Positions 1 through 13,246 of a stretch of 13,246 nucleotides of DNA are shown here, one piece after another. This DNA comes from a virus (taxonomy: Duplodnaviria > Heunggongvirae > Uroviricota > Caudoviricetes). The notes under the pieces are model-generated. The model saw only the letters and a program-made list of their open reading frames with translations, made no database searches and was not told the DNA's origin. The position numbers and the translations under genes were made by a program. Each line of letters starts with the position of its first letter. Position 1 is the first letter of the stretch. The stretch is taken from IMG/VR virus record IMGVR_UViG_2541047805_000002. One strand, written 5' to 3'.

Positions 1-258
1 ATGCAAACCGTTATTTTTGGTCGTTCGGGTTGCCCTTACTGTGTGCGTGCAAAAGATCTGGCTGAGAAATTGAGCAATGAACGCGATGATTTTCAGTATC
101 AGTATGTAGATATTCGTGCGGAAGGGATCACTAAAGAAGATCTACAACAAAAGGCAGGTAAACCCGTAGAAACCGTGCCGCAGATTTTTGTCGATCAGCA
201 ACATATCGGCGGCTATACCGATTTTGCTGCATGGGTGAAAGAAAATCTGGACGCCTGA
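1..258 (+). CDS. grxA: Glutaredoxin 1 (85 aa); window begins at its start codon, so the promoter is not visible
   Basis: 85-aa ORF with the CPYC active-site motif; translation is near-identical to E. coli GrxA as I recall it. ATG at position 1, TGA at 256-258. Confidence 0.93.
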   Translation: MQTVIFGRSGCPYCVRAKDLAEKLSNERDDFQYQYVDIRAEGITKEDLQQKAGKPVETVPQIFVDQQHIGGYTDFAAWVKENLDA

Positions 259-267
259 TCGTCTGAC

Positions 268-300
268 AAGCCCTCGCGTTGAGGGCTTTACTGATTTTTT
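268..300 (+). terminator. Putative rho-independent terminator downstream of grxA
   Basis: Inverted repeat AAGCCCTC / GAGGGCTT (268-275 and 281-288, 5-nt loop) followed by TACTGA and a T6 run (295-300). The U-tract is not directly adjacent to the stem, so this is tentative. It overlaps the 3' end of convergent ybjM. Confidence 0.4.
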
Positions 301-665
301 CTGTGCTGTGGTTTAAACAAACTACTGATAAATAAGAAACACAGTGCCCCCAGCGCACACCAGAACACCGCGCTTAGTAACCATGCCAGCTCTTGCCAGA
401 ATGAGCGCGTCGGTGAAAAAAACAGCCGCATAATGAGCATCGAACAGGGTGCCGCCAGCATTGCGCCAAACAGAGGTTTCAGGACTTCTCTACGCTGTGA
501 AAAGAAGCTGGCGACTGCTCCAGGAAGAATGAAAAATAGCAAGCCGATTTCAGGATGCCCGGCAGCCCGAAAAGCGCCTTTCATGTGCGTCGCCAGAAAA
601 AGGCACACCACAATGAAGAGGACAAAACAGCAGATTGCCCCCGCCCAACGTTGTTTATGTTTCAC
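288..665 (-). CDS. ybjM: Inner membrane protein YbjM (125 aa)
   Basis: 125-aa hydrophobic ORF matching E. coli YbjM by recall; GTG start at 665-663 preceded by AGGAGG at a 5-nt spacing; convergent with grxA as in K-12. Confidence 0.88.
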   Translation of the reverse strand: MKHKQRWAGAICCFVLFIVVCLFLATHMKGAFRAAGHPEIGLLFFILPGAVASFFSQRREVLKPLFGAMLAAPCSMLIMRLFFSPTRSFWQELAWLLSAVFWCALGALCFLFISSLFKPQHRKNQ

Positions 666-934
666 TCGTTCCTCCTGACACTGCGTCTATCGAACACATT
701 TTTCGCCAGTGTGGCGTTCAGTAAGATAAAGCCGCTTCGCATTCCATGCTAATATAGGCCAACGCAATTCATATAGCCGTTGATACCTAATGTGATTACA
801 CTAGTAAAATATATTGTTACTTTACTATCGTTTAGGTGCGCTGAATGAATCTGCGCCCTGAATTCTGGTAAAAAACATTATCGTAAATTACCATTTCTTT
901 CAACAGCTTACTAGTAAACAAGAAGTTAGCCTCC

Positions 935-2620
935 GTGAATATAAACGTCGCCGAATTGTTAAATGGGAATTACATTCTGTTATTATTTGTGGTCCTCGCG
1001 CTTGGGCTATGTCTCGGAAAGTTACGACTTGGTTCGATCCAACTGGGTAATTCCATTGGCGTTTTAGTCGTATCGCTGTTATTAGGCCAACAACATTTCA
1101 GCATTAACACCGATGCGCTTAATCTTGGCTTTATGCTGTTTATTTTCTGCGTCGGGGTCGAAGCCGGACCGAACTTTTTTTCCATTTTTTTTCGCGATGG
1201 GAAAAATTACCTAATGTTAGCACTGGTGATGGTTGGCAGTGCGCTGGTGATCGCCTTAGGGTTAGGTAAGCTGTTTGGCTGGGATATTGGCCTGACGGCC
1301 GGTATGTTAGCAGGCTCTATGACGTCGACACCGGTTCTGGTCGGTGCTGGCGATACACTGCGTCATTCCGGCATGGAAAGCAGGCAGCTCTCACTGGCAC
1401 TGGATAATCTGAGCCTCGGGTATGCCTTAACCTATTTAATCGGTCTGGTGAGTTTGATTGTTGGTGCGCGTTACTTGCCGAAATTGCAGCATCAGGACTT
1501 ACAGACCAGCGCCCAGCAAATCGCCCGCGAACGTGGCCTGGACACTGATGCCAACCGTAAGGTTTATTTACCGGTGATCCGCGCCTATCGCGTCGGCCCG
1601 GAACTGGTGGCCTGGACCGACGGCAAAAATCTGCGTGAACTGGGTATTTATCGACAAACCGGCTGCTACATTGAACGTATTCGACGTAACGGGATTCTGG
1701 CAAATCCAGACGGTGATGCCGTGCTACAAATGGGCGATGAAATAGCGTTGGTAGGCTATCCCGACGCCCATGCCCGACTCGATCCCAGCTTCCGTAACGG
1801 TAAAGAAGTTTTCGATCGTGACCTTCTCGACATGCGTATCGTCACTGAAGAAGTGGTCGTTAAAAACCATAACGCTGTAGGTAAACGTCTCGCACAACTG
1901 AAGTTGACCGATCACGGTTGCTTCCTTAACCGCGTCATTCGTAGCCAGATTGAGATGCCGATAGATGACAACGTCGTGCTTAACAAAGGTGACGTTTTAC
2001 AAGTCAGCGGCGATGCCCGCCGCGTAAAAACCATCGCCGATCGCATCGGCTTTATCTCGATTCACAGCCAGGTCACTGACCTGCTGGCATTCTGCGCCTT
2101 CTTTGTTATTGGGCTGATGATCGGGATGATCACCTTCCAGTTCAGCACATTCAGTTTCGGCATGGGGAACGCTGCCGGGTTGTTATTCGCCGGAATTATG
2201 CTGGGCTTTATGCGTGCTAACCACCCGACCTTCGGTTACATTCCGCAGGGTGCATTAAGCATGGTGAAAGAGTTCGGCTTGATGGTGTTTATGGCAGGCG
2301 TTGGTCTGAGCGCCGGTAGCGGTATTAATAACGGCCTGGGCGCGATTGGCGGTCAGATGTTGATTGCCGGATTGATTGTCAGTCTGGTGCCCGTGGTTAT
2401 CTGTTTCTTGTTCGGTGCTTATGTATTGCGAATGAACCGCGCGCTGTTGTTCGGCGCAATGATGGGCGCACGTACCTGCGCACCGGCAATGGAGATCATC
2501 AGTGATACAGCTCGCAGTAACATCCCGGCGCTGGGCTATGCGGGCACCTATGCAATCGCCAACGTCCTGCTGACGCTGGCAGGGACAATCATCGTCATGG
2601 TATGGCCAGGATTAGGATAA
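935..2620 (+). CDS. ybjL: Putative transporter YbjL (AAE-family permease, 561 aa)
   Basis: 561-aa ORF with GTG start at 935; hydrophobic N- and C-terminal membrane domains flank a soluble central region; matches E. coli YbjL by recall in sequence and length. Confidence 0.92.
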
Positions 2621-2732
2621 AACTGAAGTTGCCCTGAAAATGAAATTTTTTTGCACAACCGCAGAACTTTTCCGCAGGGCATCAGTCTTAATTAGTGCCA
2701 CTGCTTTTCTTTGATGTCCCCATTTTGTGGAG

Positions 2733-2776
2733 CCCATCAACCCCGCCATTTCGGTTCAAGGTTGATGGGTTTTTTG
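2733..2776 (+). terminator. Rho-independent terminator, probably terminating ybjL transcription
   Basis: Perfect 10-bp inverted repeat CCCATCAACC (2733-2742) / GGTTGATGGG (2760-2769) followed directly by TTTTTT (2770-2775). It is functional only on the + strand; the minus strand has no T-run after the stem. Confidence 0.6.
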
Positions 2777-2855
2777 TTGCCTGAAATTTAAGATGTTTAA
2801 AATCATGATGTTAGAAGCACTGTTTTTTAACGATGGCGACAAAATGGCGGCAGCG

Positions 2856-3074
2856 TCAAAGAGAGAGCGCCACCTGTCCTGATTTCATTGGATGCGGCTG
2901 AACTGGATTCGACTCTTTTGGTGTTGCAATCGAACGAACAAAAGTTTCATGGGTAACAAAAGTATGGCTGCAGTTAATGTTCTGGCACTGGTTATAACGC
3001 TCTTTGGTCAATGAAGATACCTGAAAACTGCTGCGAGTATGGGCGGCACTTCCACACAGTGGGCAAATCATCAT
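2856..3074 (-). CDS. ogr: Ogr/Delta-family zinc-finger late transcription activator (72 aa)
   Basis: Cys4 motif C-x2-C-x22-C-x4-C (CPLCGSAAH...CQNINC) and overall similarity to P2 Ogr by recall. I chose the ATG at 3074-3072 because GGGGAGA lies about 9 nt upstream; the track's GTG at 3107 would add 11 residues. Sits immediately downstream of D, as in P2. Confidence 0.85.
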   Translation of the reverse strand: MMICPLCGSAAHTRSSFQVSSLTKERYNQCQNINCSHTFVTHETFVRSIATPKESNPVQPHPMKSGQVALSL

Positions 3075-3104
3075 TTTTCGAGTTCTCCCCATTTTTGCTA
3101 AATT

Positions 3105-3140
3105 CACAACAATGATACCGTATTATTCCATTTTGCAAAC
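3105..3140 (-). promoter_or_regulatory. Candidate sigma70 promoter for ogr
   Basis: On the minus strand, TTGCAA (-35-like), a roughly 15-nt spacer, then TATCAT (-10-like), placed about 30-60 nt upstream of the ogr ATG. The spacer is short, so this is weak. Confidence 0.25.
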
Positions 3141-3164
3141 TTAAAAGTTCTCCATTGCGAAGAA

Positions 3165-4265
3165 TCATTCCATTTCGAAATCATCAATCCTCACTTCAAG
3201 CTCCAGACTGGTCGTAAAACCGTTATCCGGGCTGACGGTATGTGTCAGGGTGGTAATGGTCCATTCCGCATCATCTATCGGCTGTTTAAAACCACTGACC
3301 TTCACAGACATTTCCGTGTAGAGATCTGCCCGCCCTTCTGCCAGTTGTAGAGAAAATGACGCAACGCCGCGTTGCAGGCGTTCCCACTGCATTTTCGCCG
3401 CTCGTTCGGCGTTGCTCCGGTTGGCATAGGTGCGATTAAGTACCAGCACGTTTTCATCCGTACCCACCAGGTAATCGCCCTGCTTCGCTTCTGGCTCTTT
3501 CTTCTGCTTCTTAGTTCTGCGCTTACGCTTCACCGTGGTGCTTTCTTTCTTCGCAGGTTCGCGGGTATGCAACCAGCTGGCAATTACGCCCGTGTAGGCT
3601 CCGCGATCTGCCAGGGTAAATCGGTGACTGTCGCCGTCCTTGCGTGTGATAGTGATCACTGGCAGAGGTTTACCAGTGGCGCTTTTGCCCTGCCCCTGCC
3701 GGATGAATAACAGATTGCCATTTTTCACCGACGCGATGGCACCGTACTGTCTCGCCAGCCGCATCAGAAAACTGCCGTCACTCTCATTAGTCTGGTCTAT
3801 ATGCTCCACGGGCTTATCCGACAGGTCTTTACCCAGTGCCATCTTCAGCTTGTGCCGCGCGGCAATTTCCTGCACCACTTCCCCGACGGTGGTCTTATGC
3901 CACGATTTTTCACGGCGGGTATTCAGCGTTTCCCGAAAATCAGCACTTCGCGCCCGGATAGTCAGGCGGTCCGGTGCGCCAGTGTGTTCAATCTCGTCCA
4001 CTGTGAATGCCCCTTTCGGGAAAAGCGGCTGCCCCTTCCAGCCCAGCGCCAGCGTAATGACCGCACCACGGCGCGGCAGCACGATTTTTCCGTCAGCGTC
4101 ATCCAGCTCCAGATCAAGCTGGTCCGCTTCAAAGCCCCGGTTATCCGTCAGCGTCAAACTCATCAGGCGGTTATCCAGCACAGTGGTGATATCCCTGCCC
4201 TCAATACTGATGCTGAATGCGGGAGTTTTGTTGCCTTTGTTAAGCAGTTCAGAGCTGAAATTCAC
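3165..4265 (-). CDS. Phage late control gene D protein (tail protein gpD, 366 aa)
   Basis: Translation resembles P2 gpD-family tail proteins and the gene is in the U-D-ogr position. The only start that gives translational coupling is GTG at 4265-4263, which overlaps the U stop (GTGA). Confidence 0.85.
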   Translation of the reverse strand: MNFSSELLNKGNKTPAFSISIEGRDITTVLDNRLMSLTLTDNRGFEADQLDLELDDADGKIVLPRRGAVITLALGWKGQPLFPKGAFTVDEIEHTGAPDRLTIRARSADFRETLNTRREKSWHKTTVGEVVQEIAARHKLKMALGKDLSDKPVEHIDQTNESDGSFLMRLARQYGAIASVKNGNLLFIRQGQGKSATGKPLPVITITRKDGDSHRFTLADRGAYTGVIASWLHTREPAKKESTTVKRKRRTKKQKKEPEAKQGDYLVGTDENVLVLNRTYANRSNAERAAKMQWERLQRGVASFSLQLAEGRADLYTEMSVKVSGFKQPIDDAEWTITTLTHTVSPDNGFTTSLELEVRIDDFEME

Positions 4266-4747
4266 GACAGCAGCCCTCCCACCGTTTTACTGATATCGCT
4301 TAAGGCAGACGTTGCCGTGTCCTGCAGATTATTCAGTTGCGCACTGAGATCACCGAACATATCGGACAGGGATTCATCCACTCGTTTGAGCGACAGGGTG
4401 AACTCAATCCGGCGCGGCATACCGTCGCGGAAAAACTCCGTTTTAGTCTGATTCAGTCCCTCAATCACATACATACCGTAAATCGTGCCGCTGCCTTCAA
4501 TCAGGGGCCATGCTTTCCCCTGTTCTGCCATCTGCTCCAGTGCCAGCAACGACAGCCTGCCGCCTGTTATCTCCGGCATAAGAACACCGGAAAGCGTCAG
4601 CATGTCGTTTTCCGGTCCCAGAAACTGCGTGGACGGACGTCGGTTTACCCGACTGTTTGCCGCATGTCGCCAGCTGCGTTGATACTGCAGTTCCTGATAC
4701 GGCACGGTGCGCAGCATAAACACGTACAATCCCAGCACCATCATCAT
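4262..4747 (-). CDS. Phage tail protein U (gpU, 161 aa)
   Basis: Translation (MMMVLGLYVFMLRTVPYQELQYQRSWRH...) is similar to P2 gpU by recall; the ATG at 4747-4745 overlaps the stop of the T fragment (ATGA). Confidence 0.87.
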   Translation of the reverse strand: MMMVLGLYVFMLRTVPYQELQYQRSWRHAANSRVNRRPSTQFLGPENDMLTLSGVLMPEITGGRLSLLALEQMAEQGKAWPLIEGSGTIYGMYVIEGLNQTKTEFFRDGMPRRIEFTLSLKRVDESLSDMFGDLSAQLNNLQDTATSALSDISKTVGGLLS

Positions 4748-5685
4748 GCGTCGTATCCCCCCTGATCGCTGTAGTTACTCCTGGCTTTTGCCTTCAGCCT
4801 GCGTTCACGTTCATCAAGCTGGCGTGCCACCTCCCGAGCAATATCCTGCGCACTTTGTCCTGGCTGCGTCTGAATGATGATCTGCGTCGGTACCTCAATC
4901 CGTTGAACGAGCGGCACAGTGGCTGCGCGACTCACAATTGCTTCTCCACCTTTCGCGGGGAGTGCCAAAGGGTGCAACGGTGGAAGCTCTGCTGGCGCGG
5001 CAGCAACGCCCATCATTCCGGCAACAACGGCAGCCAGTGCAGCTGTATTTCTCCGGCTGGTCACATTTGCCGGGCCGTTAACAATTTCCGGCCCGTTTTC
5101 ACCGACGATGCCAAACTGCCCGCGCGGGATATACCCGCCGCTGTCATACATCCCCGCAAAGCCATACCCCCATGACGGAAAACCACCCGATGGCATCATC
5201 ACTTTACCGTCTGCATTCACCGTCGCAGGTTGCTGACGCGTCACGCTTTCCGGCAGTTTTGCCTTTGCGGCCTCTTTACTGACAATGCCAAGTTTCTCCA
5301 GCAACCAGGAAACGCCGGATTTCAGGGAGTCCAGCGGATGCATGACCATATTCAGCCCTTCCGCCAGTGCCTCTCCGAATCGCCGCCCCATTGCCGCTGC
5401 ACTCTGCAGTTCGGCAGAGGTCGACTTAACGGGCGTCAGCAGATCAGTAAACCAGCCCCACAGCGCCTGTACTTTGTCGCCAATCCACTGGAACACGGGC
5501 TTAAGCGGTTCGAACGCTGCACTGACGGGACCTGCCGCCGCTTTGAATCCTTCCACCACGCCACCAAGAAATGCGGTGATGGGTTGCCAGTATTTCCAGA
5601 CAACCAGCGCCACGCCCGCCAGTGCAGTAACCACAAGACCTATCGGACTGAGCAGAGCACCTAACAGACCAGATAGGAAGCACCA
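4744..5685 (-). pseudogene. Tail tape-measure protein gpT, C-terminal fragment only (about 300 of roughly 800 codons)
   Basis: The T frame is open from the stop at 5700-5698 down to 4744 and encodes a hydrophobic segment ([27 protein letters not shown]) followed by a Gly/Ala-rich tape-measure-like C-terminus. There is no N-terminal two-thirds and no native start; upstream sequence switches abruptly to terminase coding sequence. Confidence 0.8.
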
Positions 5686-6352
5686 TCGGATCGCCTTTCA
5701 GCTCCACCTCCACTTCTTTGGCGAAGTCGATGATGTACTGCTTAAAGACGTGGGCCTGTGCCTTACTGGCGGAAAGGAAAATCTGGTTACGCCCGGTTAG
5801 CAGGGCGTCAATCAGGGCTTCACGGGCAAAATAGAAGGTCGCGCCGATCTGGCGTGACTTCAGCAGGTTGCGGATGCGGTTGGTTTTTCCGGCTTCCCAC
5901 CAGTGGCGCTGGTAGTTGAACATGGAGGAATGGAAGATTTCTTCCAGCTTCTCAATCTGTTCATCGGTGAAAACGTTCTTTTCCGGCTGACGGCGCGGGC
6001 CTTTGTTGCGGTTGGCGACGTTAGGGTTTAAGTCGGCTTCGTTGCCGCCATTGTTAAACTTGCCGATCCGCGCATGGCGCTCCGACTGGCGCGCCAGCAG
6101 GTCAATCTCTTTGAAATCTTTCCCTTCTTTGTGCTCCTTCATAATGAGCTGGCAGTAGCGTGCGGCGGTGGTGAGCTGCATCTGATCCAGCGGCCCATAG
6201 TCACCCCACTTGTCGCGTTTTTTCCAGCTGTGAACGGTTGCAACTTTCTCGCCCAGCATTTCAGCAATGCGGGCTACGCGGTATCCCTGAAAGTACAGCA
6301 GCATGGCCTGCCGACGGGGATCGAGATCTGCGGGTGTCAGTGTGGTGTTCAT
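5678..6352 (-). pseudogene. Terminase large (ATPase) subunit gpP, N-terminal fragment only (about 225 of roughly 590 codons)
   Basis: ATG at 6352-6350. Residues 1-225 align with P2 gpP by recall (…[12 protein letters not shown]…HSWKKRD…[21 protein letters not shown]…GDPMVL). After about 5678 the frame runs through out-of-frame T-derived sequence to a stop at 5501 (track ORF 5501..6352). Confidence 0.83.
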
Positions 6353-6396
6353 GGCACAAACCTACAGCCTTGAATGAAGGCTTTCCCCGCCTGCGG

Positions 6397-6418
6397 TTTG
6401 TGTGGTTGTCGGTACAAA
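6397..6418. promoter_or_regulatory. Candidate Ogr/Delta activator-binding dyad of the late promoter for the O-N-M-L operon
   Basis: TTTGT-N12-ACAAA dyad with TGT at 6399-6401 and ACA at 6414-6416. Its centre is about 87 bp upstream of the O start codon, so roughly -55 to -60 if the transcript starts near the weak -10-like CATAAG at 6454-6459. P2 late promoters are known to carry a TGT-N12-ACA element at about -55. Confidence 0.5.
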
Positions 6419-6494
6419 TACCGCGCATTGTTTCACTGCCCCCATCACCGCAACCATAAGGCTCCAGTAAGTTTTTTCTAACGGAGCACGGCTC

Positions 6495-7328
6495 ATGACA
6501 GTGAAAGCAAAGCGTTTTCGCATCGGGGTGGAAGGTGCCACCACCGACGGACGCGAAATCCAGCGTGAATGGCTGGAACAGATGGCAGCCAGCTACAACC
6601 CGGCGGTGTATACCGCGCTGATTAACCTTGAGCACATCAAGTCTTATCTGCCGGACAGCACCTTTAACCGCTACGGCAAGGTGACGGCGCTGTTTGCTGA
6701 AGAAATCACGGAAGGTCCGCTGGCAGGCAAGATGGCGCTGTATGCCGACGTTGAGCCAACGGAGTCCCTGGTGGAACTGGTGAAAAAAGGCCAGAAATTA
6801 TTCACCTCTATGGAAGTCAGCCCGAAGTTCGCTGATACGGGCAAAGCCTACCTGGTCGGCCTGGCTGCCACTGATGACCCTGCCAGTCTGGGTACGGAAA
6901 TGCTGACATTCAGCGCCAGTGCAGCCCATAACCCGCTGGCAAACCGCAAGCAGAATCCTGCCAATCTCTTTACCGCTGCAGAGGAAACGGTGATCGAACT
7001 GGAAGAAATCCAGGACGACAAACCGTCCCTGTTTGCCCGCGTCACGGCGCTGTTTACCAAAAAAGAGCAGTCCGATGACGCCCGGTTCTCTGATGTGCAT
7101 AAGGCCGTGGAGCTGGTCGCCACTGAGCAGCAAAACCTGAGCGCACGCACCGAAAAATCCCTGTCTGAGCAGGAAGAACGCCTGTCTGAGCTGGAGACTG
7201 CCCTGCAGGCACAGCAAACCGCCTTTAACGAACTGGTGGACAAGCTGAGTCATGAAGACAGCCGCCAGGACTACCGCCAGCGTGCAACAGGCGGTAACGC
7301 CCCCGCTGACACTCTGACCAATTGCTGA
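6495..7328 (+). CDS. Capsid scaffolding protein gpO (277 aa)
   Basis: Clear similarity to P2 gpO by recall (RIGVEGATTDGR…INLEH…YLVGLAATDDPASLGTE…ATGG…TNC); GGAG about 10 nt upstream of the ATG; divergent from P as in P2. Confidence 0.9.
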   Translation: MTVKAKRFRIGVEGATTDGREIQREWLEQMAASYNPAVYTALINLEHIKSYLPDSTFNRYGKVTALFAEEITEGPLAGKMALYADVEPTESLVELVKKGQKLFTSMEVSPKFADTGKAYLVGLAATDDPASLGTEMLTFSASAAHNPLANRKQNPANLFTAAEETVIELEEIQDDKPSLFARVTALFTKKEQSDDARFSDVHKAVELVATEQQNLSARTEKSLSEQEERLSELETALQAQQTAFNELVDKLSHEDSRQDYRQRATGGNAPADTLTNC

Positions 7329-7344
7329 TGGAGCACAAAACCCG

Positions 7345-8403
7345 ATGAAGAAGAATACCCGCTTTGCTTTTAACGCTTACCTGCAGCAGCTGGCGCGTCT
7401 GAACGGTGTGGCAGTTGAAGAACTGTCCAGCAAGTTCACCGTGGAGCCGTCTGTACAGCAGACGCTGGAAGACCAGATCCAGCAGTCCGCCGCTTTCCTG
7501 ACGCTGATTAACGTCACGCCAGTGACTGAGCAGTCCGGTCAGCTGCTGGGGTTGGGTGTTGGCAGCACCATTGCCGGAACTACTGATACCACCGCGAAAG
7601 AGCGTGAACCTGTCGATCCGACGCTGATGGTCGATGTGGAATACAAATGCGAGCAGACCAACTTTGACACGGTGCTGACCTACGCGAAGCTGGACCTGTG
7701 GGCGAAATTTCAGGATTTCCAGGTGCGTATCCGTGACGCCATCGTGAAACGTCAGGCACTGGACCGCATCATGATCGGCTTTAACGGCGTGAAGCGTGCG
7801 AAAACCTCCAACCGTAGTGAAAACCCGCTGCTGCAGGATGTGAACAAAGGCTGGCTGCAGAAAATCCGTGAGGATGCACCGGATCACGTCATGGGCAGCA
7901 CCACCACAGGCGGTGAAACCACACCGGGCGCGGTGAAAGTCGGTAAAGGTGGCGAATATGCCAACCTGGACGCCGTGGTGATGGATGCCGTCAATGAGCT
8001 TATCGACGTGGTCTACCAGGACGATGACGATCTGGTGGTGATTTGCGGTCGTGAACTGTTGTCTGACAAGTATTTCCCACTGGTCAACAAAGAGCAGGAA
8101 AACAGTGAAAAACTCGCTGCCGATATGATCATCAGTCAGAAACGCATGGGTGGCCTGCAGGCCGTGCGTGCGCCGTTCTTCCCGCCGAATGCACTGCTGA
8201 TCACCCGTCTGGATAACTTGTCCATCTACTGGCAGGAAGACACCCGCCGCCGTTCAGTTATCGACAACCCGAAACGTGACCGGATTGAAAACTTTGAATC
8301 CGTTAATGAAGCCTATGTGGTTGAGGACTACCGCTGCGCCGCACTGGTGGAAAACATCCAGATTGGTGATTTCAGCGCCGCCGCAGCAGAAGCCGGAGCG
8401 TAA
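7345..8403 (+). CDS. Major capsid protein gpN (352 aa)
   Basis: 352-aa ORF called as P2 gpN-family major capsid protein from its size and position immediately after O in the conserved O-N-M-L order. Confidence 0.9.
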   Translation: MKKNTRFAFNAYLQQLARLNGVAVEELSSKFTVEPSVQQTLEDQIQQSAAFLTLINVTPVTEQSGQLLGLGVGSTIAGTTDTTAKEREPVDPTLMVDVEYKCEQTNFDTVLTYAKLDLWAKFQDFQVRIRDAIVKRQALDRIMIGFNGVKRAKTSNRSENPLLQDVNKGWLQKIREDAPDHVMGSTTTGGETTPGAVKVGKGGEYANLDAVVMDAVNELIDVVYQDDDDLVVICGRELLSDKYFPLVNKEQENSEKLAADMIISQKRMGGLQAVRAPFFPPNALLITRLDNLSIYWQEDTRRRSVIDNPKRDRIENFESVNEAYVVEDYRCAALVENIQIGDFSAAAAEAGA

Positions 8404-8406
8404 ACC

Positions 8407-9057
8407 ATGAGCCTGAGTCCCGCACGGCAGCATCGCCTGCGCGTTCAGGCTGAACAGGCCGCCCGTGAGGGCGGCAGTGTTCGCCACGCGTCGGGCTATG
8501 ACCTGATGCTGCTGCAGCTGGCGGAAGACCGCCGCCGTCTCAAGGGCGTTCAGTCCACGGTGAAAAAAGCGGAAATAAAGGTGGAGCTGCTGCCGAAATA
8601 TGCCGCCTGGGCGGAGGGCGTCCTGGCTGCCGGAGGCGCTCAACAGGATGACGTGCTGATGTACGTGATGCTGTGGCGCATTGATGCCGGAGATTATGCC
8701 GGGGCGCTGGAGATCGGGCGTCATGCCCTGCGTCATGGCTGGGTGATGCCTCTGGGTAACCGCAACGTGCAGACCGTGCTGGCAGAGGAAATGGCAGATG
8801 CAGCGCAGAGCGCAATGCTTGCCGCTACCGGCTTTGATGCCGATCTGTTGCTGCAGACGCTGGAGCTGACAGACGGTCTGGATATGCCGGACCAGTCACG
8901 GGCGCGTCTGCATAAAGCGATTGGCGCTGTCCTGAGTGAAAGCAATCCGGCTTCCGCCCTTAATCATCTCAACCATGCGTTACAGCTCGATCCCCGCTGT
9001 GGCGTGAAAAAAGACAAACAGCAGCTGGAGCGCAGACTGCGCAATGACAGCCGCTGA
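8407..9057 (+). CDS. Terminase small / endonuclease subunit gpM (216 aa)
   Basis: Similarity to P2 gpM by recall (…QDDVLMYVMLWRIDAGDYAGALEI…LELTDGLDMPD…); position N-M-L. Confidence 0.87.
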   Translation: MSLSPARQHRLRVQAEQAAREGGSVRHASGYDLMLLQLAEDRRRLKGVQSTVKKAEIKVELLPKYAAWAEGVLAAGGAQQDDVLMYVMLWRIDAGDYAGALEIGRHALRHGWVMPLGNRNVQTVLAEEMADAAQSAMLAATGFDADLLLQTLELTDGLDMPDQSRARLHKAIGAVLSESNPASALNHLNHALQLDPRCGVKKDKQQLERRLRNDSR

Positions 9058-9152
9058 CAGAACGTGCCCCCGCGCACGGGCGGCACGGGGTGGCGAAAGG
9101 CATAGCCACATCAAAATCCCGTCCACCGCCCTCTATTTCAGGAGAAAGCAGC

Positions 9153-9617
9153 ATGAAGTTTGTTGCGCCAGAACAGGCACCGGAACAGGCGGAAATCATC
9201 AGAAATACGCCGTTCTGGCCTGATGTGGACCTGTCGGAGTTTCGCAGCGTGATGCGCACTGACGGCACGGTGACGCAGCCGCGTTTAAAGCAGGTTGCCC
9301 TGTCGGCAATTTCGGAGGTCAACGCAGAGCTGTATGAGTTTCGCAGACGTCAGCAGATGCTGGGATATGCCTCGCTGGCAGAGGTTCCGGCGGAACAGCT
9401 GGACGGCAAAAGTGAGCGCATTCAGCACTATTTCAACGCGGTTTACTGCTGGGCACGCGCCATGCTCAACGAACGATACCAGGACTATGACGCCACGGCA
9501 TCCGGTGTGAAGCGGGGCGAAGAACTGGCAGAAGCCAGCGGTGATTTGTGGCGTGACGCCCGCTGGGCCATCAGCCGGGTACAGGATGCGCCGCACTGCA
9601 CAGTGGAGCTTATCTGA
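9153..9617 (+). CDS. Head completion/stabilization protein gpL (154 aa)
   Basis: ATG at 9153 with GGAGA 7 nt upstream, preferred over the track start at 9090. C-terminus ends …TVELI, as I recall for P2 gpL. Its stop overlaps the X start (ATGA). Confidence 0.83.
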   Translation: MKFVAPEQAPEQAEIIRNTPFWPDVDLSEFRSVMRTDGTVTQPRLKQVALSAISEVNAELYEFRRRQQMLGYASLAEVPAEQLDGKSERIQHYFNAVYCWARAMLNERYQDYDATASGVKRGEELAEASGDLWRDARWAISRVQDAPHCTVELI

Positions 9618-9820
9618 TGAAAGTGCGTGCGCATCAGTATGACACGGTGGACGCGCTTTGCTGGCGTCATTACGGGCGCACGCAGGGTGTCACGGAGCAG
9701 GTACTGAAGGCAAATCCGGGGCTTGCCGAATACGGCCCCTTTTTACCTCACGGGCTGCAGGTGGAGCTGCCGGACATTCCGACCACCACCACCGTGCAGA
9801 CCGTCCAGCTATGGGACTGA
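9617..9820 (+). CDS. Tail protein X (gpX, 67 aa)
   Basis: 67-aa ORF similar to P2 gpX by recall (…DTVDALCWRHYGRT…ANPGLAE…LPHG…VELPD…); translationally coupled to L. Confidence 0.85.
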   Translation: MKVRAHQYDTVDALCWRHYGRTQGVTEQVLKANPGLAEYGPFLPHGLQVELPDIPTTTTVQTVQLWD

Positions 9821-9823
9821 ATT

Positions 9824-10039
9824 ATGACGCTTGAGCGAATCAGCGCCTTTATCACGTATTGCATCGCCGTCGTGCTGGCCTGGCTGGGCGATTTGTCCAT
9901 CAAGGATGCCTCAACGCTGGGCGGCCTGATGATTGGTGTGCTGATGCTGGCTATCAACTGGTACTACAAACACAAAGCCTACCAGCTTCTGCGCGACGGG
10001 CAGATCTCGCGGGAGGACTATGAATCCATCAATCGTTAA
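9824..10039 (+). CDS. Putative class II holin, pinholin-like (71 aa)
   Basis: Two predicted transmembrane segments (ISAFITYCIAVVLAWLG and TLGGLMIGVLMLAINWYY) followed by a charged C-terminal tail; sits between X and the endolysin where the P2 holin Y lies; architecture resembles the phage 21 S21 pinholin. Confidence 0.6.
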   Translation: MTLERISAFITYCIAVVLAWLGDLSIKDASTLGGLMIGVLMLAINWYYKHKAYQLLRDGQISREDYESINR

Positions 10040-10373
10040 ACGCTGCCTTGTCGGGGCCGTGCTGGCTATTGCTGCCACGCTGCCGGGTTTTCAGCAGCTT
10101 CACACCTCCGTGGAGGGGCTGAAACTGATTGCCGATTACGAAGGTTGTCGTCTGCAGCCGTATCAGTGCAGCGCGGGTGTCTGGACCGACGGCATTGGTA
10201 ATACATCTGGCGTCATTCCAGGCAAAACCATTACGGAACGACAGGCAGCGGAAGGACTGATCTCCAACGTGCTGCGTGTGGAGCGGTCACTGGAAAGGTG
10301 TGTGAAGCAACAGCCACCGCAACCGGAGGCCCGGTATGACGCTTTATATCGGGATGAACAATACCAGCGGTAA
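10020..10373 (+). pseudogene. SAR-type endolysin (T4-lysozyme/P1 Lyz-like), truncated after about 100 residues
   Basis: N-terminal signal-anchor-like segment (KRCLVGAVLAIAATLPGF) followed by the lysozyme catalytic-region motif EGCRLQPYQCSAGVWTDGIGNT, which closely matches P1 Lyz by recall. The C-terminal lobe is missing; the ORF ends 37 nt into gene W. Confidence 0.75.
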
Positions 10374-10695
10374 AGCCATTACTGATATTGACCATCTGCG
10401 TCAGTCGGTGCGGGACATTCTACTGACACCGCAGGGTTGCCGCATTGCCCGTCGTGAATATGGTTCCCTGCTGTCGACACTGATAGACCAGCCACAAAAT
10501 CCGGCATTACGCCTGCAGGTCATGTCGGCAGTGTATGTGGCGCTGAGTCGCTGGGAGCCACGGCTGACGCTGGATTCCATCACCATTAAAAGCAATTTTG
10601 ACGGTTCAATGGTGGTGGGGCTGACCGGGCGGCGTAATAACGGTGTGCCTGTTTCCCTTTCCGTATCAACAGGAGCAGAGAATGGCAGTGATTGA
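10336..10695 (+). CDS. Baseplate assembly protein W (gpW, 119 aa)
   Basis: Similarity to P2 gpW along its length by recall (…YGSLL…IDQPQ…PAL…WEPR…FDG…LTG…); GGAGG 6 nt upstream of the ATG. Confidence 0.88.
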   Translation: MTLYIGMNNTSGKAITDIDHLRQSVRDILLTPQGCRIARREYGSLLSTLIDQPQNPALRLQVMSAVYVALSRWEPRLTLDSITIKSNFDGSMVVGLTGRRNNGVPVSLSVSTGAENGSD

Positions 10696-11590
10696 CCTTT
10701 CGCAGTTGCCTGCGCCGCAGATTGTCGATGTGCCGGACTTTGAGACGCTGCTTGCCGAACGCAAGGCCGAATTTGTTGTGCTTCATCCGAAAGATGAGCA
10801 GGAAGCCGTGATCCGCACGCTGGAACTGGAATCTGAACCCGTCACCAAATTGCTGCAGGAGAACGCTTACCGTGAGTTGCTTCTGCGCCAGCGCATTAAC
10901 GAAGCCGCGCAGGCTGTGATGGTGGCTTACGCGATGGGCGGCGATCTTGACCAGCTCGCTGCCAACTACAACGTGAAACGCCTGACGGTGACGCCTGCTG
11001 ATAATGACGCTGTGCCACCCGTTGCGGCTGTGATGGAAAGCGATGAAGCGTTACGCCTGCGTGTGCCTGCAGCCTTTGAAGGGCTTTCTGTTGCGGGGCC
11101 AACTGCCGCTTATGAATTTCATGCCCGAAGCGCCGACGGTCGGGTGGCGGATGCCAGTGCAACCAGTCCGGCACCTGCAGAGGTGGTACTGACTGTCCTG
11201 AGTCGTGAAGGCGACGGAACAGCAGAAAAAGACTTGCTGGATGTGGTGGAGAAAGCCCTGAACAGTGAGAACGTCCGCCCGGTGGCTGACCGTCTGACGG
11301 TTCGCAGCGCAGAAATCATCCCGTACCGTGTGGAAGCTACCATTTTTCTTTATCCGGGACCGGAAGCAGAGCCGGTAATGGCAGCGGCAAAAGTCAGCCT
11401 GCAGAGGTACATCGCCAGTCAGACGCGGCTCGGTCGGGATATTCGCCGTAGTGCTATTTTTGCCGCGCTGCATGTTGAGGGTGTTCAACGTGTGGAGCTG
11501 GCTTCACCGCTGGCTGATGTGGTCCTGAACAAAACGCAGGCGGCATCATGTACGCAGTGGAGCGTGACCAACGGGGGAACGGATGAATAG
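10682..11590 (+). CDS. Baseplate assembly protein J (gpJ, 302 aa)
   Basis: ATG at 10682 with AGGAG upstream, preferred over the track start at 10643. Called as P2 gpJ-family baseplate protein from its length and its W-J-I-H position. Confidence 0.87.
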   Translation: MAVIDLSQLPAPQIVDVPDFETLLAERKAEFVVLHPKDEQEAVIRTLELESEPVTKLLQENAYRELLLRQRINEAAQAVMVAYAMGGDLDQLAANYNVKRLTVTPADNDAVPPVAAVMESDEALRLRVPAAFEGLSVAGPTAAYEFHARSADGRVADASATSPAPAEVVLTVLSREGDGTAEKDLLDVVEKALNSENVRPVADRLTVRSAEIIPYRVEATIFLYPGPEAEPVMAAAKVSLQRYIASQTRLGRDIRRSAIFAALHVEGVQRVELASPLADVVLNKTQAASCTQWSVTNGGTDE

Positions 11591-12188
11591 TCTGCTGCCA
11601 CCGGGTTCAACGCCACTGGAGCGCCGACTGGCGCAAACCTGTAGCGGGATTTCTGATCTGCAGGTGTCACTGCGTGACTTGTGGAATCCGGCAACCTGTC
11701 CGGTCAGTTTCCTGCCTTATCTCGCCTGGGCGTTCTCTGTGGATCGCTGGGACGAGGGCTGGACAGAAAGCGTCAAACGCCAGGTAGTGAAGGATGCTTT
11801 TTATATTCATCAGCACAAAGGAACCACCAGTGCCGTACGGCGGGTGGTGGAGCCGTTCGGCTTCCTGATCCGCATTATTGAGTGGTGGCAGACCGGAGAA
11901 ACACCGGGCACGTTTCGTCTGGACATTGGTGTGCAGGACCAGGGCATCACTGAAGATACCTATCTGGAACTTGAGCGACTGATAAGCGATGCCAAACCAT
12001 GTAGCCGTCACATGATCGGCATGTCCATCAATCTGCAGACCAGCGGCCCGCATTGGGTGGGAGCCGCCAGTTATCTTGGCGAAGAAATCACGATCTATCC
12101 GTATATCAACGAAACAATTATTTCCGGCGGCACCGCGCATGAAGGCGGGGCGGTCCATGTTATTGACACAATGAGAGTGAATCCATGA
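11583..12188 (+). CDS. Baseplate/tail protein I (gpI, 201 aa)
   Basis: Assigned from its position between J and H and from 8-nt overlap with the J stop; consistent with P2 gpI-family proteins. Confidence 0.83.
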   Translation: MNSLLPPGSTPLERRLAQTCSGISDLQVSLRDLWNPATCPVSFLPYLAWAFSVDRWDEGWTESVKRQVVKDAFYIHQHKGTTSAVRRVVEPFGFLIRIIEWWQTGETPGTFRLDIGVQDQGITEDTYLELERLISDAKPCSRHMIGMSINLQTSGPHWVGAASYLGEEITIYPYINETIISGGTAHEGGAVHVIDTMRVNP

Positions 12189-13246
12189 GCACAAAATTTT
12201 ATACCCTGCTGACGGATATTGGCGCGGCGAAACTTGCCAGCGCCGCCGCGCTCGGTGTGCCGCTAAAAATTACCCATATGGCGGTGGGCGATGGCGGCGG
12301 AGCATTGCCGACGCCGGACGCAAAGCAGACTGCACTGGTAAATGAGAAACGCCGGGCTGCGCTGAATATGCTCTATATCGACCCGCAGAACAGCAGCCAG
12401 ATTATTGCTGAACAGGTGATCCCTGAAAATGAGGGTGGTTGGTGGATACGTGAAGTGGGTCTGTTTGATGAGTCCGGGGCATTGATTGCCGTAGGCAACT
12501 GCCCGGAAAGCTATAAGCCGCAACTGGCTGAAGGCAGCGGGCGCACCCAGACCGTGCGCATGGTGTTGATTACCAGCAGCACGGACAATATCACCCTGAA
12601 AATCGACCCTGCCGTCGTGCTGGCAACCCGCAAGTATGTGGATGACAAGGTACTGGAGCTGAAGGTGTTCGTGGATGATAAGATGGCAAAACATCTTGCC
12701 GCACCGGACCCGCATTCACAGTATGCACCCAAAGAAAGCCCGACATTGACCGGAACACCCAAAGCGCCAACGCCAGCGGAGGGGAATAACACCACGCAGA
12801 TTGCGACCACCGCGTTTGTTCAGGCGGCACTGATGGCCCTTATTAATGGTGCGCCAGCCACACTGGATACGCTGAAAGAAATTGCCGCTGCCATTAATAA
12901 TGACCCGAAATTCAGTACCACTATTAACAATGCGCTGGCACTGAAAGCGCCGCTGTCAAGTCCGGCACTCACCGGAACGCCAACAGCCCCCACTGCCGCA
13001 CAGTCGGTTAACAATACACAGATTGCCACTACGGCTTTTGTGAAATCGGCGATTGCGGCAATGGTGGGTTCTGCACCTGCGGCACTGGATACACTGAACG
13101 AACTGGCGGCGGCGCTGGGGAATGACCCGAACTTTGCCACGACAATGCTTAATGCACTGGCAGGTAAACAACCGCTGGACAATACGCTGACTAATTTGAG
13201 TGGAAAGGATGTAGCTGGTCTTCTCGCATACCTTGGTTTGGGAGAA
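12185..13246 (+). CDS. Tail fibre protein H (gpH), 5' partial: 354 codons, runs off the window end
   Basis: Absent from the ORF track because there is no stop in the window. ATG at 12185 overlaps the I stop (ATGA). The N-terminal region (MSTKFYTLLTDIGAAKLASAAALGVPLKITHMAVGDGGGALP…) resembles P2 gpH by recall, followed by fibre-type repeats. Confidence 0.85.
   Translation, partial: MSTKFYTLLTDIGAAKLASAAALGVPLKITHMAVGDGGGALPTPDAKQTALVNEKRRAALNMLYIDPQNSSQIIAEQVIPENEGGWWIREVGLFDESGALIAVGNCPESYKPQLAEGSGRTQTVRMVLITSSTDNITLKIDPAVVLATRKYVDDKVLELKVFVDDKMAKHLAAPDPHSQYAPKESPTLTGTPKAPTPAEGNNTTQIATTAFVQAALMALINGAPATLDTLKEIAAAINNDPKFSTTINNALALKAPLSSPALTGTPTAPTAAQSVNNTQIATTAFVKSAIAAMVGSAPAALDTLNELAAALGNDPNFATTMLNALAGKQPLDNTLTNLSGKDVAGLLAYLGLGE
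12737..13180 (+). repeat. Two tandem divergent repeats of about 222 nt (74 aa) inside tail-fibre gene H
   Basis: Protein repeat units start at H residues 185 and 259: SPTLTGTPKAPTPAEGNNTTQIATTAFVQAALMALINGAPATLDTLKEIAAAINNDPKFSTTINNALALKAPLS versus SPALTGTPTAPTAAQSVNNTQIATTAFVKSAIAAMVGSAPAALDTLNELAAALGNDPNFATTMLNALAGKQPLD. Confidence 0.7.

Follow-up and report, generated by a model that had tools for sequence, protein, structure and literature searches.

The inverted repeat between the divergent late genes P and O of this P2-like prophage remnant is very probably a single binding site for an Ogr-type activator, common to the leftward promoter PP and the rightward promoter PO, as it is in phages P2 and 186. 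The remnant lies in a 13,246-nt stretch of DNA (IMG/VR virus record IMGVR_UViG_2541047805_000002), hereafter called the window. The site is conserved in relatives, keeps a fixed geometry to the -10-like elements on both sides, stands at the head of late operons that have no good -35 hexamer, and recurs at the other late operons of a relative; a gene of the Ogr family is present in the window itself. From homology and conservation we predict binding of the activator, activation by it and the positions of both transcript starts. By itself, such a dyad only extends the textbook late promoter architecture of P2 and 186 to another lineage and matters little. More value lies in a by-product of the analysis, which is the prediction of a leaderless terminase mRNA across a wide clade. 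The new element is that the P start codon is placed exactly where the P transcript should begin, while the rest is known architecture.

A gap of 142 bp separates the start codon of P (CAT at 6350-6352, minus strand) from that of O (ATG at 6495). An initial annotation of this DNA had described a dyad with five-base arms, TTTGT-N12-ACAAA at 6397-6418, in this gap, and its sequence was confirmed as TTTGT-GTGGTTGTCGGT-ACAAA. The site, the two genes that flank it and the candidate activator gene are as follows.

6398 to 6417, centre 6407.5: predicted activator (Ogr/B/Delta-type) dyad TTGT-N12-ACAA, common to PP and PO.
5674 to 6352, minus strand: truncated large-terminase gene P', 226 N-terminal codons, with Pfam domains Terminase_5 and Terminase_6N.
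6495 to 7328, plus strand: gene O, capsid scaffold/protease (Pfam Phage_GPO, E=4e-113, and the annotation of a relative), first gene of the rightward late operon.
2856 to 3074, minus strand: ogr-like gene, 72 aa, candidate activator on the dyad, with a C4 zinc finger CX2CX22CX4C (Pfam Ogr_Delta, E=5e-22).

Motif counts within the window cannot settle the function of the dyad. TGT-N12-ACA was seen four times versus 3.6 expected, and the longer TTGT-N12-ACAA once versus 0.26 expected, with at least one match in 46 of 200 shuffles; the form with five-base arms and at most one mismatch was seen three times versus 0.47 expected. The chance-level frequency of the short motif and the return of the longer one in the shuffles would both suit a chance palindrome without function. 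Since the window counts alone are unremarkable, the significance of the dyad must come from its context, and the case for the proposed function is made by position and conservation. The other three TGT-N12-ACA matches were set aside as chance occurrences. Two of these, at 302 and 957, fall within host genes; the third, a perfect match at 6341-6358 that runs over the P start codon, is probably fortuitous, its ACA being unconserved (A6356 in 17 of the 52 relatives' sequences described below). A terminator-like stem at 6410-6423 (CGGTA/TACCG followed by a T-rich tail), which falls in the right half of the dyad, was rejected because both predicted starts lie downstream of it and the relatives do not conserve it. 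A consensus scan of both strands from 6250 to 6600 returned no sigma-70-type promoter. This agrees with the earlier observation that a good -35 hexamer is missing, and such an absence fits activator dependence of PP and PO.

Comparison with the annotated activator sites of P2 and 186 demonstrated that the window dyad aligns with both in position and in half-sites (window, GGTTTGTGTGG; 186, CTGTTGTGTGG). The P2 record (NC_001895) lists one 'activator binding site; pO, pP promoters' at 3057-3087; the annotated transcripts begin at 3016 for P (minus strand) and at 3127 for O. The core of that site, TGTGTCAGTGATAAGCCA, is a TGT-N12-CCA at 3063-3080 with its centre at 3071.5, 55.5 nt from each start. 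In P2, as in the window, the large terminase gene P is read leftward and the scaffold gene O rightward from one dyad, which in P2 is partial and lies midway. The P2 starts are 111 bp apart, 55.5 bp to each side of the dyad, and the same spacing is proposed for the window. The -10 offsets from the dyad are identical in the two systems (P side, TAGCCT in P2 and TAGGTT in the window; O side, GAAACT in P2 and CAACCA/AACCAT in the window), and neither system has a -35 consensus. The two differ in that the P2 site is the imperfect TGT-N12-CCA whereas that of the window is a perfect TTGT-N12-ACAA, and in the length of the intergenic region, which is 173 bp in P2 and 142 bp in the window.

The 186 record (NC_001317) likewise carries one protein_bind feature for both divergent promoters, a B-protein site at 3798-3817 annotated with 'activation of pV and p12 promoters'. 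Its left arm and adjoining bases are nearly identical to those of the window (TTGTGTGG), and the distance from the site to the ATG of the O homologue is 87.5 in both by the same measure. In contrast to the window, 186 has TGT-N12-CCA and a leader of ~22 nt on its P homologue. P2 PF and 186 pJ also carry TGT-N12-CCA, with the centre at -56.5 to -58.5 (P2 PF) and at -57.5 (186 pJ) from the annotated starts. All four P2 late promoters are reported to carry the consensus TGT-N12-ACA and to depend on the zinc-finger protein Ogr (PMC3931495). The same report assigns one TGT-N12-ACA-like site (4381-4398) of the Stenotrophomonas P2-like phage Smp131 to both PP' and PO'. Smp131 thereby resembles the window in having one site for both promoters, and it also encodes an Ogr-like CX2CX22CX4C protein (PMC3931495), although its host and lineage are distant and that assignment is likewise a prediction only. 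The often-quoted N12 spacing is not universal, as the dyad of P2 PV (10243-10259) is TGT-N11-ACA and the P/O sites of Rahnella prophages also have N11.

To follow the dyad in relatives, genome contigs were scanned by gpO alignment with one genome per species, which yielded 80 loci with gpO 46-99% identical, and the P and O starts were located at each of the 80 by tblastn. A gpO scan of viral contigs had also given 80 loci, but these were 99-100% identical and therefore useless for conservation, and the genome-contig scan with alignment replaced it. The conservation set was confined to the window lineage. It comprised 52 distinct sequences of the P/O gap, with gpO 57-99% identical, and covered Escherichia, Citrobacter, Enterobacter, Klebsiella, Raoultella, Pantoea, Erwinia, Tatumella, Rosenbergiella, Buttiauxella, Plesiomonas and further genera. 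Each of the 52 contains a perfect TGT-N12-ACA. TTGT (6398-6401) and ACAA (6414-6417) are invariant and at the same position throughout the set, and the inner N12 varies. The outermost bases are not conserved (T6397 in 32 of 52, A6418 in 8 of 52), so the conserved core has arms of four bases rather than five. The initial annotation had staked its reading on conservation of the dyad in related P2-like prophages; that conservation was found, and the dyad it described is real with each arm shortened by one base. Together with the constrained promoter positions of a P2/186-type architecture, the eight constrained bases of the site make an unusually clean phylogenetic footprint. A palindrome arising by chance is excluded by these data, and we leave it practically no probability: its eight core bases would not stay invariant in 52 of 52 sequences while flanking and inner bases vary, nor would it keep a fixed distance to conserved -10-like elements on both sides, nor recur in an intact relative only in front of other late operons.

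That relative is Escherichia phage 500465-1 (~36 kb), in which TTGT-N12-ACAA occurs exactly three times: in the P/O gap, before V and before the sheath gene FI. The dyad centre precedes the V ATG by 55.5 nt and the FI ATG by 85.5 nt, and the three sites correspond in position to the four late promoters of P2. The window itself has lost the V and FI promoters. A host factor such as CRP, rather than a phage activator, could be imagined on the site, which begins with TGTG and whose palindromic TGT...ACA resembles CRP half-sites. The CRP consensus TGTGA-N6-TCACA, however, amounts to TGT-N10-ACA and not to N12. The N12 motif, moreover, marks exactly the late operons of phage 500465-1 and matches the sites annotated for Ogr and B, which makes binding by CRP or a similar protein highly improbable. 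Position, half-sites, conservation and the presence of ogr in the window all point instead to the architecture of an Ogr-activated P2 late promoter, as the initial annotation had proposed.

On the O side, the following elements were assigned.

6428 to 6433, plus strand: TTGTTT, weak -35-like element of PO, its TTGT at +20.5 from the dyad centre in 52 of 52 sequences.
6452 to 6457, plus strand: AACCAT, predicted PO -10 (A at -11, T at -7), inside the conserved block GCAA[A/C]CATA.
6463 to 6466, plus strand: predicted PO start range, with the dyad centre at -55.5 to -58.5, by homology with the annotated P2 PO, P2 PF and 186 pJ.

The spacer between TTGTTT and AACCAT is 18 bp, and in -35 terms only TTG (6428-6430) is present. 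The role of the invariant TTGT at 6428-6431 is uncertain, since the equivalent TTGT is found at +24.5 in PF of phage 500465-1. AACCAT has the same offset from the dyad as GAAACT in P2 and 186, which we read as their probable -10 hexamer from its position relative to the annotated P2 start. The CATA of the conserved block begins at +47.5 from the dyad centre in 46 of the 52 sequences and at +46.5 in the other 6. CATAAG (6455-6460) was considered as an alternative PO -10; it lacks a T at -7 and would need a 21-bp spacer, and AACCAT is tentatively preferred. The predicted O leader is ~29-32 nt long and carries the Shine-Dalgarno (SD) sequence GGAG at 6483-6486, and an SD-like 4-mer was found in 24 of 24 distinct O upstream sequences. 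Among relatives the distance from the dyad centre to the O ATG ranges from 81.5 to 100.5, and such variation is expected of a gene with a leader. A placement of the dyad near -55 of the O transcript, as suggested in the initial annotation, would fit the homology with the annotated P2 starts.

The leftward promoter is defined by two predicted elements.

6359 to 6364, minus strand: TAGGTT, predicted PP -10, at -12 to -7 relative to the A of the P ATG.
6352, minus strand: predicted PP start on the A of the P start codon, from promoter geometry.

None of the 52 sequences needed a gap in the P-side alignment. Within TAnnnT the bases T, A and T (plus-strand columns 6364, 6363 and 6359) are invariant in the whole set, and the distance from TAGGTT to the dyad equals that of P2 TAGCCT, which occupies -12 to -7 of the annotated P2 P start at 3016. 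In 52 of 52 sequences a distance of 55.5 nt separates the dyad centre from the A of the P ATG, and the only exceptions to this spacing were two Yersinia prophages with a 28-nt insertion. The P ATG and the C at -1 (plus-strand G6353) are likewise invariant in 52 of 52, giving a C(-1)A(+1) start context. The -55 placement would accordingly hold on the P side as well, with +1 on the A of the ATG, a coincidence that had gone unnoticed.

Having seen no equivalent dyad for P, the initial annotation left a choice between a degenerate P site and shared regulation. The lack of such a dyad is no anomaly, because the records of P2 and 186 also give a single site to the two divergent promoters, and shared regulation is the alternative that stands; a degenerate site is not needed. 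We consider it quite unlikely that the dyad serves PO only and that PP has its own degenerate activator site to the right of it. The invariant TTGT at 6428-6431 and a four-of-six match, TGT-N12-ATC at 6429-6446, could be taken for such a site, but a centre near 6437 is ~85 bp from the P ATG and would put the P start ~30 nt upstream of it, in a region that has a conserved TAnnnT and no SD. There is, in addition, no second conserved dyad, since matches of five in six occur nearby in only a few relatives, and the common site of the P2 and 186 records again argues for a single site here.

With the one common site as the reference point, the P mRNA of the window lineage is predicted to be leaderless. 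The prediction follows from the fixed 55.5 nt between the dyad centre and the A of the ATG, from a TAnnnT that ends 7 nt upstream of the ATG, and from the lack of an SD: an SD-like 4-mer at -18 to -4 of P was found in 0 of 27 distinct upstream sequences of the window class, whereas the same test was positive in 13 of 13 of the leadered P2/186 class. A -10 hexamer in place of an SD directly upstream of the start codon has been used as a criterion for leaderless genes, and leaderless initiation in E. coli requires an AUG start codon (PMC4633059). The P genes of the set have TAnnnT at -12 to -7, no SD-like 4-mer, and ATG in 52 of 52. On balance we judge it probable, with the odds somewhat in its favour, that the terminase mRNA of this lineage would be leaderless and that its transcription would start on the A of the P ATG. 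A shift of the P start by 1-3 nt is possible, because the annotated centre-to-start distances in P2 and 186 extend from -55.5 to -58.5.

The main competitor, to which we give roughly a one-in-three weight, accepts the common activator site and supposes that the P mRNA has a short or ordinary leader, that it starts elsewhere, or that P is translated from a downstream codon. The 3-nt spread of the annotated distances in P2 and 186 speaks for it, as do the 23-28-nt leaders of the two Yersinia relatives and of the P2/186 class. Leaderless translation in E. coli is also inefficient, at ~10% of the leadered level (PMC4633059), which would be odd for an essential terminase. Against a leader in the window lineage, there is no room for one between the ATG and a TAnnnT at the exact P2 distance from the dyad, and the SD-like 4-mers are missing. 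Initiation downstream is disfavoured because the ATG is invariant while the codons that follow it vary, and because the next in-frame ATG of the window P is codon 17, where P2 has Ala.

A documented counterpart for transcription from the start codon exists within the same family. In the P2 record the V transcript starts on the first base of V, and PMC4633059 refers to Christie and Calendar 1985 for a P2 gene without a leader. P2 PV resembles the PP proposed here: it depends on Ogr, and its transcript is annotated to begin with the first base of the start codon. In the window lineage the ATGs of V (in phage 500465-1) and of P are both exactly 55.5 nt from the centre of TTGT-N12-ACAA. The two cases differ in that P2 PV drives another gene and has an N11 dyad, and in that the leaderless V is documented whereas the leaderless P is only predicted.

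The same short arrangement was observed in a second group of prophages, of P2 type, from Serratia, Rahnella, Sodalis, Pectobacterium and Yersinia, where the dyad centre lies 54.5-57.5 from the P ATG wherever a dyad was detected and SD-like 4-mers were found in 0 of 10. The P genes of P2 and 186, by contrast, have a leader of ~22-23 nt with an SD (GAGG) after the annotated start; P2 has 23 nt, GAGG and an inverted repeat, whereas the window has no such leader and its P ATG falls on the predicted +1. Leaderless genes are rare in E. coli-like hosts, and the few mRNAs of this kind listed for enterobacteria include lambda cI, P2 V and Tn1721 tetR. We lean slightly towards the broader proposal that a large clade of Enterobacterales P2-like prophages (Fels-2/SopEPhi, Wadgaonvirus, Dagavirus and many others) would express the essential terminase from a leaderless mRNA whose AUG is locked at +1 of an activator-dependent promoter. 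The 23-28-nt, SD-containing, hairpin-forming leaders of P2, 186, PSP3 and a few Yersinia prophages would then represent an alternative state of the same promoter. If true, the family would supply natural pairs of one essential gene, leadered and leaderless, for comparison in E. coli-like hosts, and confirmation would make a widespread essential gene an addition to the short list of enterobacterial leaderless mRNAs. The leadered P genes have leaders of 22-28 nt with an inverted repeat around or beside the SD (CCCTCG-N9-CGAGGG in one; CCGTG-N7-CACGG in P2, 2994-3016), and this repeat may form a hairpin for translational control.

The late activators of the P2 family are small C4 zinc-finger proteins, namely Ogr in P2, B in 186 and Delta in P4, and a defining trait of P2-type late promoters is that they require both the activator and the C-terminal domain of the alpha subunit of RNA polymerase (the rpoA109 phenotype). 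In the mechanism that we propose for the window, the activator would bind the symmetric site midway between two divergent sigma-70 promoters with a weak or no -35, the centre of the site being ~55.5 bp upstream of each start. Once bound, it would switch on the leftward P operon (terminase/portal) and the rightward O operon (scaffold, capsid, lysis) together, presumably through contact with the C-terminal domain of the alpha subunit, as described for P2.

The window Ogr is intact and 54% identical to 186 B, and its counterpart in E. coli E2348/69 is annotated as ogr/Delta-like. Its identity to the Ogr of phage 500465-1 (14212-14430), a phage with which the window shares its P/O region, is only 63%, and for this reason it may not be the cognate activator of the P/O segment. 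Late activators of the P2 family are able to cross-activate each other's promoters.

The surroundings of the dyad are those of a degraded element. The window comprises host chromosome (grxA, ybjM, ybjL) followed by a scrambled P2-like prophage remnant (2621-13246). Positions 1-5675 are colinear with E. coli E2348/69, where a prophage adjoins ybjL, and on the minus strand this left segment carries ogr, D, U and the C-terminal portion of T, the tape-measure gene. A first junction at ~5674 leads to the N-terminal 226 codons of P, also on the minus strand; beyond them, on the plus strand, O, N, M, L, X and Y are intact and K is truncated. A second junction at ~10320, where K is cut, leads into V, of which only the final 20 nt are left, and then into W, J, I and H. 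The open frame of P' runs on into unrelated sequence as far as 5501, and similarity to intact phage P genes stops at 5674, the intact homologue being 1767 bp long. The portal gene, most of P, lysA/B, R, S, V and the sheath and tube genes are missing. With P ending after 226 codons and no portal gene left, the leftward promoter has become vestigial in this window. A search of 5,426 complete E. coli genomes found neither junction (~5674 or ~10320).

The middle segment is 98-99.9% identical to prophages of the Wadgaonvirus type (phage 500465-1, UMNK88) and ~92-94% identical to SopEPhi, RE2010 and SEN8, and positions 6200-6700 are 100% identical to phage 500465-1. The contrast between this identity across the P/O region and the far lower identity of the two Ogr proteins indicates that the left segment was probably derived from another P2-like phage than the middle segment, and the remnant has the appearance of a fusion. 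The record of Escherichia phage 500465-1 (NC_049342), given as a 'complete' genome, contains the host genes smpB, ratA, bamE, recN, nadK, grpE and ffh and IS fragments as well as split portal and terminase coding sequences, and it represents a prophage region with its flanks rather than a clean phage genome.
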